Assembly: GCF_013122565.1 (NCBI RefSeq)
Contig: NZ_CP053258.1
Length of the DNA stretch: 64,000 bases
From: Escherichia coli
Lineage (GTDB): Bacteria; Pseudomonadota; Gammaproteobacteria; Enterobacterales; Enterobacteriaceae
Strand: one strand, 5' to 3'
Below, one piece after another: positions 45,304-53,002 of this stretch. Within the stretch, counting starts at the first letter, position 1. Each line of letters opens with the position of its first letter. The notes beneath the pieces were generated by a model, which was not told the DNA's origin, searched no databases, and saw only the letters and a list, made by a program, of their open reading frames with translations. The translations under genes were made by a program, and so were the position numbers.

Positions 45304-48099
45304 ATGGAGATAATTATGAGAAACCTCTGTTTCTTACTGACGTTAGTGGCAACTCTGTTGCTCCCCGGGCGGCTGATTGCCGCCGCCTTACCGCAGGATG
45401 AAAAGTTAATTACCGGACAACTGGACAATGGCTTGCGATATATGATTTATCCGCATGCTCAACCAAAGGATCAGGTAAATTTATGGCTGCAAATTCATAC
45501 CGGTTCATTGCAGGAAGAAGACAATGAGCGCGGCGTGGCTCATTTTGTAGAACATATGATGTTTAACGGCACAAAAACATGGCCGGGTAATAAAGTCATC
45601 GAAACATTTGAGTCAATGGGCCTGCGTTTTGGTCGCGATGTTAATGCCTATACCAGCTATGACGAAACGGTGTATCAGGTGAGTTTGCCGACTACGCAGA
45701 AACAAAATCTGCAACAAGTGATGGCAATCTTCAGTGAATGGAGTAATGCCGCAACCTTTGAAAAACTCGAAGTAGACGCTGAACGTGGAGTAATTACTGA
45801 GGAATGGCGTGCCCATCAGGATGCGAAATGGCGCACCTCTCAGGCGCGCCGCCCTTTCCTACTGGCTAATACCCGTAATTTAGACCGTGAACCTATCGGC
45901 CTGATGGATACTGTCGCCACGGTCACACCGGCACAATTGCGCCAATTTTATCAACGCTGGTATCAACCAAATAATATGACCTTTATCGTGGTCGGCGATA
46001 TCGACAGTAAAGAAGCGCTGGCGCTGATAAAGGATAATTTAAGTAAGCTTCCAGCTAACAAAGCAGCTGAAAATCGCGTCTGGCCGACAAAAGCCGAAAA
46101 TCACCTGCGCTTTAATATCATTAATGATAAAGAAAACCGGGTGAACGGCATCGCACTCTATTATCGCCTGCCAATGGTACAAGTGAACGATGAGCAAAGC
46201 TTTATCGAACAAGCTGAATGGAGCATGTTAGTTCAGCTGTTCAATCAACGTCTGCAGGAACGCATACAGTCGGGCGAGTTGAAGACTATTTCTGGCGGCA
46301 CTGCGCGCAGCGTTAGAATTGCACCCGATTATCAGTCGCTGTTTTTCCGTGTAAATGCACGAGACGATAATATGCAGGATGCTGCGAATGCATTAATGGC
46401 AGAGTTGGCAACCATTGATCAGCATGGTTTTTCTGCTGAAGAACTCGATGATGTCAAATCTACCCGCCTCACCTGGCTGAAAAATGCGGTTGATCAGCAA
46501 GCTGAACGTGATTTACGTATGCTGACCAGTCGCCTGGCATCCAGCTCATTAAATAATACGCCGTTCTTGTCGCCGGAAGAGACATATCAACTTTCGAAAC
46601 GTCTGTGGCAGCAAATTACCGTGCAAAGTCTGGCGGAAAAATGGCAGCAGTTAAGAAAGAACCAGGACGCATTTTGGGAGCAAATGGTAAACAATGAGCT
46701 TGCCGCCAAAAAAGCATTGTCTCCTGCGGCTATCCTGGCGCTGGAAAAAGAGTACGCCAACAAAAAGCTGGCGGCTTACATCTTCCCAGGCAGAAATTTA
46801 TCGTTAACAGTAGACGCTGACCCACAGGCGGAAATTAGCAGCAAAGAAACGCTGGCTGAGAATCTGACATCATTAACACTTTCCAATGGTGCCAGGGTTA
46901 TTCTGGCAAAATCCGCGGGTGAAGAGCAAAAGCTACAAATTATTGCCGTATCGAATAAAGGCGATTTAAGTTTCCCTGCGCAGCAAAAATCACTTATCGC
47001 GCTGGCAAATAAAGCAGTTAGCGGAAGCGGCGTTGGCGAACTCTCCTCTTCCAGCCTGAAACGCTGGAGTGCGGAAAACTCGGTAACCATGAGCAGTAAA
47101 GTCAGTGGCATGAATACGTTGCTCTCCGTTAGCGCGCGGACTAATAACCCTGAACCTGGTTTTCAGTTGATTAACCAGCGAATCACCCACAGCACGATTA
47201 ACGACAATATTTGGGCATCGCTACAAAATGCTCAAATTCAGGCGTTGAAAACGCTCGACCAGCGTCCAGCGGAGAAATTCGCCCAGCAGATGTATGAGAC
47301 GCGCTATGCTGATGACCGCACGAAATTACTGCAAGAAAATCAGATTGCACAGTTTACTGCCGCAGATGCGCTGGCTGCCGATCGCCAGTTGTTTTCATCT
47401 CCAGCGGATATCACGTTTGTCATTGTAGGTAATGTCGCAGAAGACAAACTCGTGGCGTTAATTACGCGTTACTTAGGATCAATCAAACACTCTGATTCGC
47501 CATTAGCCGCAGGTAAACCATTAACTCGCGCGATGGACAACGCATCGGTTACTGTAAAAGAACAAAATGAACCTGTGGCACAGGTTTCACAGTGGAAGCG
47601 TTATGATTCCCGGACACCTGTTAATCTGGCGACGCGTATGGCGCTCGATGCTTTTAACGTCGCACTGGCAAAAGATCTACGCGTTAATATTCGTGAACAG
47701 GCATCTGGGGCATACAGCGTTTCTTCTCGCCTCTCGGTTGATCCTCAGGCTAAAGATATCAGTCATTTGCTGGCTTTTACTTGTCAACCAGAACGACATG
47801 ATGAACTGTTAACGTTAGCGAATGAAGTGATGGTTAAGCATTTGACTAAAGGGATCAGTGAGCAAGAACTGAACGAATACCAGCAAAACTTTCAGCGCAG
47901 CCTCGATATCCAACAGCGTAGCGTTCAACAATTAGCGAACACTATTGTAAATAGTCTTATTCAATATGACGATCCTGCAGCATGGACTGAGCAGGAGCAA
48001 TTGTTGAAACAAATGACGGTAGAGAATGTTAACACTGTCGTTAAACAATATCTTTCTCATCCGGTAAATACTTATACCGGAGTATTATTGCCAAAATAA
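45304..48099 (+). CDS. pqqL: PqqL, periplasmic M16-family zinc metallopeptidase
   Basis: 931-aa ORF with the inverted zinc-binding motif HFVEH. An alternative start at 45316 (MRNLCF...) is possible. Confidence 0.92.
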   Translation: MEIIMRNLCFLLTLVATLLLPGRLIAAALPQDEKLITGQLDNGLRYMIYPHAQPKDQVNLWLQIHTGSLQEEDNERGVAHFVEHMMFNGTKTWPGNKVIETFESMGLRFGRDVNAYTSYDETVYQVSLPTTQKQNLQQVMAIFSEWSNAATFEKLEVDAERGVITEEWRAHQDAKWRTSQARRPFLLANTRNLDREPIGLMDTVATVTPAQLRQFYQRWYQPNNMTFIVVGDIDSKEALALIKDNLSKLPANKAAENRVWPTKAENHLRFNIINDKENRVNGIALYYRLPMVQVNDEQSFIEQAEWSMLVQLFNQRLQERIQSGELKTISGGTARSVRIAPDYQSLFFRVNARDDNMQDAANALMAELATIDQHGFSAEELDDVKSTRLTWLKNAVDQQAERDLRMLTSRLASSSLNNTPFLSPEETYQLSKRLWQQITVQSLAEKWQQLRKNQDAFWEQMVNNELAAKKALSPAAILALEKEYANKKLAAYIFPGRNLSLTVDADPQAEISSKETLAENLTSLTLSNGARVILAKSAGEEQKLQIIAVSNKGDLSFPAQQKSLIALANKAVSGSGVGELSSSSLKRWSAENSVTMSSKVSGMNTLLSVSARTNNPEPGFQLINQRITHSTINDNIWASLQNAQIQALKTLDQRPAEKFAQQMYETRYADDRTKLLQENQIAQFTAADALAADRQLFSSPADITFVIVGNVAEDKLVALITRYLGSIKHSDSPLAAGKPLTRAMDNASVTVKEQNEPVAQVSQWKRYDSRTPVNLATRMALDAFNVALAKDLRVNIREQASGAYSVSSRLSVDPQAKDISHLLAFTCQPERHDELLTLANEVMVKHLTKGISEQELNEYQQNFQRSLDIQQRSVQQLANTIVNSLIQYDDPAAWTEQEQLLKQMTVENVNTVVKQYLSHPVNTYTGVLLPK

Positions 48100-48105
48100 T
48101 AACAG

Positions 48106-48135
48106 CCCCGTCAACACATCGTTGGCGGGGATTTT
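48106..48135 (+). terminator. Rho-independent terminator after pqqL
   Basis: CCCCGTCAAC / GTTGGCGGGG stem (one G-U pair) followed by ATTTT. Confidence 0.55.
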
Positions 48136-48361
48136 AGCAATATTCGCTATTTTTATGTAATAATTTTATAAATGCGTTCAAAATAATAACCAAGTACTAA
48201 TAGTGATATTTTAAGGTCTGATTTTTACGTGATAATTCAGGAGACACAAAAAGCGCATAAAAATAACAACATAAAACACCTTACCACCACCCAAGAATTC
48301 TCTATTGCATTGTTTTTTAATGGAAAAATATTATTCTAACAATATCTCACGATAAATAACA

Positions 48362-48381
48362 TTAGGATTTTGTTATTTAAA
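48362..48381 (+). promoter_or_regulatory. GAD box (TTAGGATTTTGTTATTTAAA) upstream of gadB
   Basis: Exact 20-nt match to the gad-box sequence as I remember it; about 80 nt upstream of the gadB start. Confidence 0.75.
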
Positions 48382-48460
48382 CCCGAGTCCTTTGCACTTG
48401 CTTACTTTATCGATAAATCCTACTTTTTTAATGCGATCCAATCATTTTAAGGAGTTTAAA

Positions 48461-49861
48461 ATGGATAAGAAGCAAGTAACGGATTTAAGGTCGGAACTAC
48501 TCGATTCACGTTTTGGTGCGAAGTCTATTTCCACTATCGCAGAATCAAAACGTTTTCCGCTGCACGAAATGCGCGACGATGTCGCATTTCAGATTATCAA
48601 TGACGAATTATATCTTGATGGCAACGCTCGTCAGAACCTGGCCACTTTCTGCCAGACCTGGGACGACGAAAATGTCCACAAGTTGATGGATTTATCCATT
48701 AACAAAAACTGGATCGACAAAGAAGAATATCCGCAATCTGCAGCCATCGACCTGCGTTGCGTAAACATGGTTGCCGATCTGTGGCATGCGCCTGCGCCGA
48801 AAAATGGTCAGGCCGTTGGCACCAACACCATTGGTTCTTCCGAGGCCTGTATGCTCGGCGGGATGGCGATGAAATGGCGTTGGCGCAAGCGTATGGAAGC
48901 TGCAGGCAAACCAACGGATAAACCAAACCTGGTGTGCGGTCCGGTGCAAATCTGCTGGCATAAATTCGCCCGCTACTGGGATGTGGAGCTGCGTGAGATC
49001 CCTATGCGCCCCGGTCAGTTGTTTATGGACCCGAAACGCATGATTGAAGCCTGCGACGAAAACACCATCGGCGTGGTGCCGACTTTCGGCGTGACCTACA
49101 CCGGTAACTATGAGTTCCCGCAACCGCTGCACGATGCGCTGGATAAATTCCAGGCCGACACCGGTATCGACATCGACATGCACATCGACGCCGCCAGCGG
49201 TGGCTTTCTGGCACCGTTCGTCGCCCCGGATATCGTCTGGGACTTCCGCCTGCCGCGGGTGAAATCGATCAGTGCTTCAGGCCACAAATTCGGTCTGGCT
49301 CCGCTGGGCTGCGGCTGGGTTATCTGGCGTGACGAAGAAGCACTGCCGCAGGAACTGGTGTTCAACGTTGACTACCTGGGTGGTCAGATTGGTACTTTCG
49401 CCATCAACTTCTCCCGCCCGGCAGGTCAGGTAATTGCACAGTACTATGAATTCCTGCGCCTCGGTCGTGAAGGCTATACCAAAGTACAGAACGCCTCTTA
49501 CCAGGTTGCCGCTTATCTGGCGGATGAAATCGCCAAACTGGGGCCGTATGAGTTCATCTGTACGGGTCGCCCGGACGAAGGCATCCCGGCGGTTTGCTTC
49601 AAACTGAAAGATGGTGAAGATCCGGGATACACCCTGTACGACCTCTCTGAACGTCTGCGTCTGCGCGGCTGGCAGGTTCCGGCCTTCACTCTCGGCGGTG
49701 AAGCCACCGACATCGTGGTGATGCGCATTATGTGTCGTCGCGGCTTCGAAATGGACTTTGCTGAACTGTTGCTGGAAGACTACAAAGCCTCCCTGAAATA
49801 TCTCAGCGATCACCCGAAACTGCAGGGTATTGCCCATCAGAACAGCTTTAAACATACCTGA
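48461..49861 (+). CDS. gadB: Glutamate decarboxylase beta
   Basis: 466 aa from ATG 48461 ([23 protein letters not shown]...) with RBS GGAG at 48451-48454. Confidence 0.95.
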
Positions 49862-49881
49862 TAACGTTTAACGGTAACGGT

Positions 49882-49907
49882 GTCCCGAAACGAACCCGTT
49901 TCGGGAC
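49882..49907 (+). other. 10-bp-stem hairpin in the gadB-gadC intergenic region
   Basis: GTCCCGAAAC-GAACCC-GTTTCGGGAC, followed by only a weak T tract. Confidence 0.5.
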
Positions 49908-50016
49908 AATTTCCAAAGTCTGTTCACTGGCATTAGCAACGGAAAATATTGTTCTGAATACGCTTCAGAACAAAACAGGTGCGGTTCCGACAGGAATACC
50001 GTTTTAGGGGGATAAT

Positions 50017-51552
50017 ATGGCTACATCAGTACAGACAGGTAAAGCTAAGCAGCTCACATTACTCGGATTCTTTGCCATAACGGCATCGATGGTAATGGCT
50101 GTTTATGAATACCCTACCTTCGCAACATCGGGCTTTTCATTAGTCTTCTTCCTGCTATTAGGCGGGATTTTATGGTTTATTCCCGTGGGACTTTGTGCTG
50201 CGGAAATGGCCACCGTCGACGGCTGGGAAGAAGGTGGTGTCTTCGCCTGGGTATCAAATACTCTGGGGCCGAGATGGGGATTTGCAGCGATCTCATTTGG
50301 CTATCTGCAAATCGCCATTGGTTTTATTCCGATGCTCTATTTCGTGTTAGGGGCACTCTCCTACATCCTGAAATGGCCAGCGCTGAATGAAGACCCCATT
50401 ACCAAAACTATTGCAGCACTCATCATTCTTTGGGCGCTGGCATTAACGCAGTTTGGTGGCACGAAATACACGGCGCGAATTGCTAAAGTTGGCTTCTTCG
50501 CCGGTATCCTGTTACCTGCATTTATTTTGATCGCATTAGCCGCTATTTATCTGCACTCCGGTGCCCCCGTTGCTATCGAAATGGATGCGAAGACCTTCTT
50601 CCCTGACTTCTCTAAAGTGGGCACCCTGGTTGTATTTGTTGCCTTCATTTTGAGTTATATGGGCGTTGAAGCTTCCGCAACCCACGTCAATGAAATGAGC
50701 AATCCAGGGCGCGACTATCCACTGGCTATGTTACTGCTGATGGTGGCGGCAATCTGCTTAAGCTCTGTTGGCGGTTTGTCTATTGCGATGGTCATTCCGG
50801 GTAATGAAATCAACCTCTCCGCAGGTGTAATGCAAACCTTTACTGTTCTGATGTCCCATGTGGCACCGGAAATTGAGTGGACGGTTCGCGTAATCTCCGC
50901 ACTGCTGTTGCTGGGTGTTCTGGCGGAAATCGCCTCCTGGATTGTTGGTCCTTCTCGCGGGATGTATGTCACAGCGCAGAAAAACCTGCTGCCAGCAGCA
51001 TTCGCTAAAATGAACAAAAATGGCGTACCGGTAACGCTGGTCATTTCGCAGCTGGTGATTACTTCTATCGCGTTGATCATCCTCACCAATACCGGTGGCG
51101 GTAACAACATGTCCTTCCTGATCGCACTGGCGCTGACGGTGGTGATTTATCTGTGTGCTTATTTCATGCTGTTTATTGGCTACATTGTGTTGGTTCTTAA
51201 ACATCCTGACTTAAAACGCACATTTAATATCCCTGGTGGTAAAGGGGTGAAACTGGTCGTGGCTATTGTCGGTCTGCTGACTTCAATTATGGCGTTTATT
51301 GTTTCCTTCCTGCCGCCGGATAACATCCAGGGTGACTCTACTGATATGTATGTTGAATTACTGGTCGTTAGTTTCCTGGTGGTACTTGCCCTGCCCTTTA
51401 TTCTCTATGCTGTTCATGATCGTAAAGGCAAAGGGAATACCGGCGTTACTCTGGAGCCAATCAACAGTCAGAACGCACCAAAAGGTCACTTCTTCCTGCA
51501 CCCGCGTGCACGTTCACCACACTATATTGTGATGAATGACAAGAAACACTAA
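50017..51552 (+). CDS. gadC: Glutamate:GABA antiporter
   Basis: 511-aa polytopic membrane ORF immediately downstream of gadB. Confidence 0.95.
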
Positions 51553-51577
51553 CCATGTCTGAATGGTTATAAGATAA

Positions 51578-51606
51578 GGGAGCGATAATTCATCGCTCCC
51601 TTTTTC
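51578..51606 (+). terminator. Rho-independent terminator after gadC
   Basis: GGGAGCGAT-AATTC-ATCGCTCCC followed by TTTTT. Confidence 0.75.
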
Positions 51607-51682
51607 GTGCTTGCTGTCGTATTGACTTAACCGGGATAAGTACGAGAATGAGCGCACATCTGTTTACCGGAAACCAGCACAT

Positions 51683-53002
51683 ATGGATATCTGCTCCCGA
51701 AACGAGAAATTAGCGATTAGAAGACCAGCGATACTGGTTGCACTGGCACTTTTACTGTGTAGTTGTAAAAGCACGCCTCCAGAGTCCATGGTGACACCAC
51801 CAGCGGGTTCAAAGCCACCAGCCACGACGCAACAATCGTCACAACCGATGCGTGGCATCTGGCTGGCCACGGTGTCTCGCCTCGACTGGCCACCGGTTTC
51901 CTCGGTTAACATTAGTAACCCCACCAGCCGGGCCCGTGTACAACAACAGGCGATGATCGACAAACTAGATCATCTGCAACGTCTCGGCATAAACACGGTC
52001 TTTTTCCAGGTCAAGCCAGACGGTACCGCCCTGTGGCCATCGAAAATTTTGCCGTGGTCCGATCTTATGACCGGTAAGATTGGTGAAAATCCGGGTTACG
52101 ATCCGCTGCAATTCATGCTCGACGAAGCCCACAAGCGTGGGATGAAAGTACACGCCTGGTTTAACCCCTATCGCGTATCGGTTAATACGAAGCCCGGTAC
52201 TATCAGGGAACTGAATAGCACCCTGTCTCAACAACCGGCGAGCGTCTATGTGCAACACCGCGACTGGATCAGAACGTCCGGCGATCGCTTTGTCCTCGAC
52301 CCGGGCATACCTGAGGTTCAGGACTGGATCACGTCAATAGTCGCAGAAGTGGTTTCCCGCTATCCGGTAGATGGCGTGCAGTTTGACGACTATTTCTATA
52401 CTGAGTCACCGGGTTCACGGCTAAATGATAACGAAACGTACCGCAAATACGGAGGCGCATTTGCGTCGAAAGCAGACTGGCGGCGCAACAATACTCAGCA
52501 GTTAATTGCAAAAGTATCGCACACCATTAAAAGCATTAAGCCGGGAGTCGAATTTGGCGTTAGCCCGGCAGGCGTGTGGCGTAACCGATCACACGATCCG
52601 CTCGGTTCCGATACCCGAGGCGCGGCAGCCTATGACGAATCCTACGCTGACACCCGTCGATGGGTGGAACAAGGATTGCTGGATTACATTGCTCCCCAAA
52701 TTTACTGGCCGTTCTCACGGAGTGCCGCGCGTTATGACGTGTTGGCAAAATGGTGGGCGGATGTCGTTAAACCGACCAGGACCCGCCTGTATATCGGTAT
52801 CGCCTTCTATAAAGTGGGTGAACCTTCAAAGATAGAGCCAGACTGGATGATTAACGGCGGCGTACCGGAACTGAAAAAGCAGCTCGATCTTAACGATGCG
52901 GTACCAGAAATTAGCGGCACAATCTTGTTCCGTGAGGACTATCTGAATAAACCGCAGACTCAACAAGCGGTCAGCTATCTGCAAAGTCGTTGGGGCAGTT
53001 AA
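51683..53002 (+). CDS. yddW: YddW, lipoprotein with glycoside-hydrolase-like domain
   Basis: 439-aa ORF with a lipoprotein signal ending in a lipobox-like LLCSC. Confidence 0.9.
   Translation: MDICSRNEKLAIRRPAILVALALLLCSCKSTPPESMVTPPAGSKPPATTQQSSQPMRGIWLATVSRLDWPPVSSVNISNPTSRARVQQQAMIDKLDHLQRLGINTVFFQVKPDGTALWPSKILPWSDLMTGKIGENPGYDPLQFMLDEAHKRGMKVHAWFNPYRVSVNTKPGTIRELNSTLSQQPASVYVQHRDWIRTSGDRFVLDPGIPEVQDWITSIVAEVVSRYPVDGVQFDDYFYTESPGSRLNDNETYRKYGGAFASKADWRRNNTQQLIAKVSHTIKSIKPGVEFGVSPAGVWRNRSHDPLGSDTRGAAAYDESYADTRRWVEQGLLDYIAPQIYWPFSRSAARYDVLAKWWADVVKPTRTRLYIGIAFYKVGEPSKIEPDWMINGGVPELKKQLDLNDAVPEISGTILFREDYLNKPQTQQAVSYLQSRWGS

Follow-up and report, generated by a model that had tools for sequence, protein, structure and literature searches.

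GadB and GadC, a cytosolic glutamate decarboxylase and a membrane glutamate:GABA antiporter, form the core of the main extreme-acid resistance system of Escherichia coli and Shigella. Cells require far more of the decarboxylase than of the antiporter, and the genes for both are transcribed together, with gadB first. Between them lies a strong hairpin, and the question raised by this locus is what that hairpin does. A reading made from the sequence alone had offered three possibilities, namely a partial terminator or attenuator setting the gadB:gadC expression ratio, an RNA-processing element, or a stability element. We examined these possibilities in a 64-kb stretch of E. coli DNA (contig NZ_CP053258.1), referred to here as the window, together with the corresponding operons of other bacteria and with published maps of transcript ends. 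The features discussed are collected in the table below.

Table. Features of the gadB-gadC locus and of the paralogous gadA locus. Positions are those of the window unless MG1655 is named.
Feature	Position	Strand	Basis or remarks
gadB CDS (glutamate decarboxylase B)	48461..49861	+	ORF list; ATG inferred from MDKKQ... translation; RefSeq annotation under match
gadB stop codon TGA	49859-49861	+	
Intercistronic RNA stem-loop after gadB	49881..49908	+	Folding, shuffles, pair probabilities, Escherichia alignment
Parts of the stem-loop	5' arm 49882-49892 GTCCCGAAACG; loop 49893-49896 AACC; 3' arm 49897-49907 CGTTTCGGGAC	+	
Tail 3' of the stem, carrying mapped RNA 3' ends	49909..49918 (ATTTCCAAAG)	+	Term-seq
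gadC CDS (glutamate:GABA antiporter), downstream, co-transcribed	50017..51552	+	ORF list; RefSeq annotation under match
Canonical operon-end terminator after gadC	51576..51606	+	GGGAGCGAT-AATTC-ATCGCTCCC then TTTTT; Term-seq 3' end 51606 (MG1655 1568900)
gadA hairpin	18-60 nt after gadA stop, about 3666120-3666162 (locus L088, MG1655 3664000-3667600)	minus	Folding

The gene names gadB and gadC given by the sequence-only reading agree with RefSeq, which annotates both genes under the match. With the gadC ATG at 50017, the spacer between the two genes measures 155 nt. Upstream of gadB, an imperfect AT-rich palindrome, TAAATAACATTAGGATTTTGTTATTTA (48353-48379), contains TTAGGATTTTGTTATTTA, a putative match to the GAD box bound by GadE-RcsB.

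Positions 49882-49907 form a perfect 11-bp Watson-Crick stem, seven of whose pairs are G-C, with a loop of 4 nt; if the optional U49881-A49908 pair is counted, the stem reaches 12 bp. The earlier description of a strong, GC-rich stem starting 20 nt past the gadB stop was therefore accurate in strength and position, although it gave the length as 10 bp. It was also right that there is no full T tract: the tail, AATTTCCAAAG, holds just three T's, with one or two A's between them and the stem. The free energy of the hairpin is about -20 kcal/mol. When a local segment of 45 nt was folded with RNAfold, the value was -21.1 kcal/mol (z = -4.46), and none of 200 dinucleotide shuffles was as stable; the pair probabilities of the stem range from 0.97 to 1.0. 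A search for perfect stems in the spacer against 200 dinucleotide shuffles gave p <= 0.005, and the spacer as a whole is unusually structured (z = -4.05). Among the nine perfect hairpins with a stem of at least 9 bp in the window, the one after gadB is the most stable.

The sequence belongs to this place in the genome. The 76 nt around the hairpin occur at a single place (median 1, highest 2) in 5,405 of 5,426 complete E. coli genomes, and 3,587 of those 5,405 are identical over the whole segment. A REP or other repeat element is ruled out, since the sequence is single-copy in each genome rather than present in dispersed copies. Similarly, a scan of 47500-52500 against Rfam 15 at E <= 10 returned no match overlapping the spacer (49860-50016). 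Directly 5' of the stem, a tandem AACGGT-AACGGT occupies 49871-49882; one E. coli genome (NZ_OZ121084.1) carries three AACGGT copies, and the copy number appears to vary. The AACGG unit is complementary to CCGTT of the 3' arm, an alternative pairing that is far weaker than the hairpin.

To follow the element within the genus, we aligned 13 Escherichia sequences, comprising six E. coli variants, E. albertii, E. whittamii and several further lineages. Over the 12 pairs of the stem, pairing holds in 95.4% of cells, compared with 25-56% in controls in which the partner was slid by 1-3 columns. Four pairs have changed on both sides. In E. albertii, one U-A pair has become C-G and two A-U pairs have become G-C; the fourth case is found in strain SCPM-O-B-8794. 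The E. coli variants examined differ within the loop, where AACC is replaced by CACC, AAGC or AATC, or at the G that closes it. Because the two-sided changes are compensatory, they indicate that the RNA structure is under selection, and the alignment thus identifies the stem as a selectively maintained structure. The run of T's after the stem is not maintained in the same way; the tails read AATTTCC, AAATTCC, AATTCC, GCATTCC and AAACTCC across the genus. The last of these belongs to E. albertii, in which the T run is lost and the stem remains intact through compensation. Taken together, these results indicate that the gadB hairpin is a genuine RNA element, conserved and of a familiar kind.

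Transcript ends at this position could be examined in public data, as the gadB-gadC spacer shows zero differences from that of E. coli K-12 MG1655. This identical sequence allowed window position x to be converted into MG1655 coordinate 1570644-(x-49862), on the minus strand. As a check on the conversion, the published 3' end of the gadC terminator, 1568900, converts to window position 51606, which is the C that follows TTTTT. The 6 kb around the spacer contain 99 positions that differ from MG1655 (about 1.65%), and a 226-nt stretch that includes the spacer (49838-50063) contains none. At that rate the 155-nt spacer should hold about 2.6 differences, and the observed zero is suggestive but not significant.

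Two Term-seq datasets from two laboratories place a stable RNA 3' end 4-6 nt past the stem, at 49912-49914. In the M63 sheet of Supplementary file 1 of Adams et al. 2021 (PMC7815308), a 3' end is listed at 1570594 on the minus strand, which corresponds to window position 49912, the third U of AAUUU; the flanking sequence printed with this entry is that of the gadB hairpin. The study labels this end "orphan" because it lies 51 nt from the stop codon, one base past the 50-bp window used there for "primary" ends. It is supported by 33,817 reads in M63, compared with 70,553 at the gadC terminator, a ratio that hints that about one third of the stable 3' ends of the operon are located at the hairpin, with the caveat that Term-seq counts are not quantitative. 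A second paper, which re-analyzed the Term-seq data of Dar and Sorek (the TRS paper, PMC10687069), reports a 3' terminus at 1570588-1570598 with a dominant position at 1570592. These coordinates translate to 49908-49918 and 49914 in the window; the terminus was significant in three of three replicates and was classified as "Alternative primary in TU, gadB."

The 3' end produced at the hairpin is thus already present in public transcript-end maps, and the element itself is uncharacterized: we found no description of the gadB-gadC hairpin in the literature searched. Given a 3' end 4-6 nt past the stem, uniform transcript coverage across the gadB-gadC junction, the result named in advance as one that would refute the sequence-only reading, is unlikely. 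Of the three possibilities raised at the outset, the common expectation that transcripts end here is borne out by Term-seq. Termination or attenuation emerges as the weaker explanation, and a role in stability fits the evidence better.

We consider it somewhat probable that this stem-loop, internal to the gadBC operon, sets and shields the 3' end of a gadB-only mRNA, and that polymerase continues past it into gadC. According to this proposal, the hairpin would fold about 20 nt past the gadB stop, at a distance that the terminating ribosome just fails to cover. Polymerase would mostly pass it and continue into gadC, because no U tract is adjacent to the stem. Those transcripts that are cut later on, or that end prematurely, within the 110-nt untranslated spacer or gadC would then be trimmed in the 3'-to-5' direction by exonucleases (PNPase and RNase II), which would stall at the hairpin and leave a stable species that ends at AAUUU (49912-49914). 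A minor share of these ends may come from inefficient intrinsic termination at the AAUUU tail; protection and leaky termination are not mutually exclusive. The expected outcome is a gadB message that is longer-lived and more abundant than the gadC message, which would suit the pairing of an abundant enzyme with a membrane antiporter. We infer both the origin of the 3' end by trimming and the effect of the hairpin on the gadB:gadC ratio.

This proposal has a well-documented precedent. In E. coli, stable stem-loops without U-rich tails stop PNPase and RNase II and in this way set the 3' ends seen at steady state (Dar & Sorek 2018, PMC6061677). The gadB hairpin shares the features of that class, being a stable stem-loop of terminator-like energy and geometry with a 3' end immediately downstream and few uridines (3/8) in place of a U-rich tail, and its end is present in Dar and Sorek's own Term-seq data, as seen in the TRS re-analysis. 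It differs from the class in two respects, as it lies within a transcription unit, with a co-transcribed gene on either side, instead of closing one, and no C-rich, rut-like region follows it. The C/G ratio is 0.8 in the 108 nt after the hairpin, which shows no C bias. A Rho loading site is therefore not supported; the C/G ratio gives no rut-like signature, and no bicyclomycin-sensitive region is listed. Supplementary file 2 of Adams et al. contains no Rho region at the hairpin, a result obtained from exponential-phase LB cultures, in which gadBC is weakly expressed.

The strongest competitor of 3'-end protection is a leaky Rho-independent terminator, in which the hairpin and AAUUU would release some polymerases at about 49912-49916, yielding a gadB-only transcript and less transcription of gadC. 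The geometry is indeed terminator-like (a GC-rich stem of 11-12 bp and a 4-nt loop followed by three U's), the mapped 3' end lies on or just past those U's, and this position on a short U run is what leaky termination also predicts. In addition, hairpins with weak U tails may act as inefficient intrinsic terminators (Dar & Sorek, PMC6061677). However, one or two A's separate the stem from the U's, and only three of the eight following bases are U. For E. coli RNA polymerase to terminate, a minimum of three U's must follow the hairpin immediately, and efficient release takes more than that (PMC3993855); the gadB hairpin lacks the adjacent U's that this requirement, with its U tract of 7-9 nt, calls for. 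The loss of the U run in E. albertii and its shortening in other Escherichia, with the stem kept by compensation, also count against this explanation. Among the features of a canonical terminator, the stable GC-rich hairpin is present, and both an adjacent U tract and its conservation are absent.

The terminator at the end of the operon provides an internal comparison. In the eight nucleotides after the G-C base of the stem, six are T's at the gadC terminator and three at the gadB hairpin, with tails of UUUUUCGU and AAUUUCCA, respectively. A scan for consensus terminators did not list the gadB hairpin, a result to which we give little weight because the same scan also missed the true gadC terminator.

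To extend the comparison beyond Escherichia, we scanned for GadC in one genome per species, which gave 80 loci, about 66 of them with gadB directly upstream of gadC. In 56 of the 58 spacers of at least 40 nt, which cover over 30 genera, there is a hairpin of -12 kcal/mol or better, and 42 of the 58 contain a perfect-stem hairpin that beats shuffles at p <= 0.05. These hairpins start at a median of 20.5 nt after the gadB stop (quartile range 17-36 nt), and a distance of about 20 nt places a structure just outside the footprint of a terminating ribosome. Their sequences are unrelated between genera and their position is similar. For instance, Providencia, Proteus, a Klebsiella sp. and an Enterobacteriaceae MAG share a second, unrelated hairpin family with compensation at 7 of 13 pair positions, tabulated by anchoring on the invariant core, as MAFFT misaligned one member (locus L026).

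The presence of T tracts was then compared at the same loci, counting after A-U and G-U pairs had been trimmed off the base of each stem. At least five T's in the next 8 nt were found after 10 of 56 post-gadB hairpins and after 28 of 59 post-gadC hairpins, so that post-gadB hairpins are significantly poorer in T tracts (Fisher p = 0.0008, a value that is indicative only, as the loci are not phylogenetically independent). When stems were allowed to absorb A-U pairs, the comparison did not discriminate between post-gadB and post-gadC hairpins. On the side of termination, about one in five post-gadB hairpins elsewhere carries a clear T tract, for instance CTTTTTTTT in Yersinia rohdei, CTTTTTT in Serratia and ATTTTTTT in Comamonas. 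Considering all of this evidence, we regard a leaky terminator as possible but rather unlikely, and intrinsic termination is probably not the main mechanism at the gadB hairpin.

Read-through past hairpins of this kind occurs, as indicated by the combination of two observations: gadB, gadC, glsA and hdeA are co-transcribed in Brucella microti (PMC5695133), and related Brucella and Ochrobactrum loci (L024 and L039) have a 13-bp hairpin after gadB. Outside Escherichia (loci L008-L073), GadC is 70-80% identical to the E. coli protein and the adjacent GadB about 55-61%; judging from these identities, the two genes have diverged unequally or possibly had different histories.

Hairpins after genes are common in bacteria generally. 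The recurrence of a hairpin across genera suggests that the arrangement is selected rather than accidental, and its occurrence at the same position in the gadBC operons of many genera, mostly without a U tract, is of modest added value. A broader proposition would be that a strong, U-poor stem-loop about 15-25 nt past the decarboxylase stop is a general selected feature of gadBC operons in Gamma-, Beta- and Alphaproteobacteria, acting as a tunable valve for decarboxylase:antiporter stoichiometry, possibly modulated by growth condition, a protein or a small RNA, with 49911-49939 as the control site. We view this generalization as speculative and consider it improbable.

The segment 49911-49939 deserves description in its own right. 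It reads TCC-A/G-AAGTCTGTTCACTGGCATTAGCAA and is invariant but for one A/G site in 13 of 13 Escherichia sequences, E. albertii included, so that it varies even less than the stem. In the RNAalifold structure, part of the block pairs with CGGTAACGG upstream of the hairpin, a pairing without covariation, and the block also contains a promoter-like match, TTCACT-18 nt-TATTGT (8/12 matches). The block may serve for processing, for binding or as a weak internal promoter. Further downstream, a second spacer hairpin at 49949-49973, TTGTTCTGAA-tacgc-TTCAGAACAA, is AT-rich, with 10 bp and -10.1 kcal/mol, and resembles a terminator on the minus strand (tail TATTTTCC). Its support within Escherichia is mixed, with one pair showing C-G, U-G and C-A states. 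In Providencia and Proteus, too, the first spacer hairpin is followed by a weaker one, suggesting a common two-hairpin layout.

The near invariance of this block across Escherichia and the unusual structure of the whole spacer noted above could also point to a regulated device, either an attenuator that works only under certain conditions or a site bound by a protein or small RNA (e.g., ProQ or Hfq), at which read-through, processing or gadC translation would change with acid stress or growth phase. In line with this idea, Adams et al. called the 3' end at the hairpin in M63 and in neither of their two LB conditions. However, the end at the gadC terminator was likewise called in M63 only, and expression level together with the thresholds used for peak calling could account for the contrast between media. 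No competing anti-terminator or leader peptide was found, nor any known RNA family in the Rfam search. The minimum free energy structure of the spacer pairs the post-hairpin AUUUCC with GGGGAU of gadC, as an anti-Shine-Dalgarno element would; once the gadC start is included, the probabilities of this pairing between the tail and the gadC ribosome-binding site are at most 0.3, and the candidate was rejected. A regulated device thus appears quite improbable. A palindromic operator or cruciform acting at the DNA level, or an incidental palindrome without function, can be dismissed as very improbable. A dimeric regulator might in principle recognize a perfect inverted repeat, but compensation preserves pairing rather than sequence in two unrelated hairpin families, which indicates an RNA structure and not an operator recognized by its sequence. 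In addition, the stem is directly followed by a mapped RNA 3' end, and hairpins occur at the same position in over 30 genera.

Returning to protection of the gadB 3' end, arrangements of this type are familiar from other operons. Intercistronic stabilizer hairpins reportedly accompany unequal operon expression at the malE-malF REP of E. coli and in pufBA-LMX of Rhodobacter capsulatus. Like these, the gadB hairpin lies just 3' of the upstream gene whose product is needed in larger amounts, and an upstream-only mRNA exists beside the full-length transcript; unlike the malE-malF element, it is not a REP sequence and is present in one copy per genome. In the ars1 operon of Bacillus sp. CDB3, an inverted repeat between arsC and arsD is accompanied by a short transcript and by lower expression of the full-length one (PMC4562236), and the gadB inverted repeat resembles it in lying between two genes of one operon and being associated with a short transcript. 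It differs from leaky operon-internal terminators in having no adjacent U's and in the lack of conservation of its short U run.

A similar element follows the paralogue gadA. In MG1655, the gadA-gadX spacer contains a hairpin with a 15-bp perfect stem, AACCGAATGCCCAGC...GCTGGGCATTCGGTT, of -26.6 kcal/mol. Like the gadB hairpin, it starts shortly past the stop codon (18 nt), has no T tract (tail GCTTATTAATCG) and is followed by a gene on the same strand (gadX), although the two sequences are unrelated. Adams et al. list no Term-seq 3' end at the gadA hairpin, a point that weighs against the protection proposal.

The gadB hairpin is an ordinary type of operon-internal RNA element, and the class of mechanism proposed here is well established, so that the value of these findings is a better annotation of a heavily studied operon rather than a new principle. 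If the hairpin does stabilize a gadB-only message, it would provide a simple post-transcriptional route to an imbalance between GadB and GadC from one promoter, and this would bear on how reporter, knockout and qPCR data for gadB and gadC are read.
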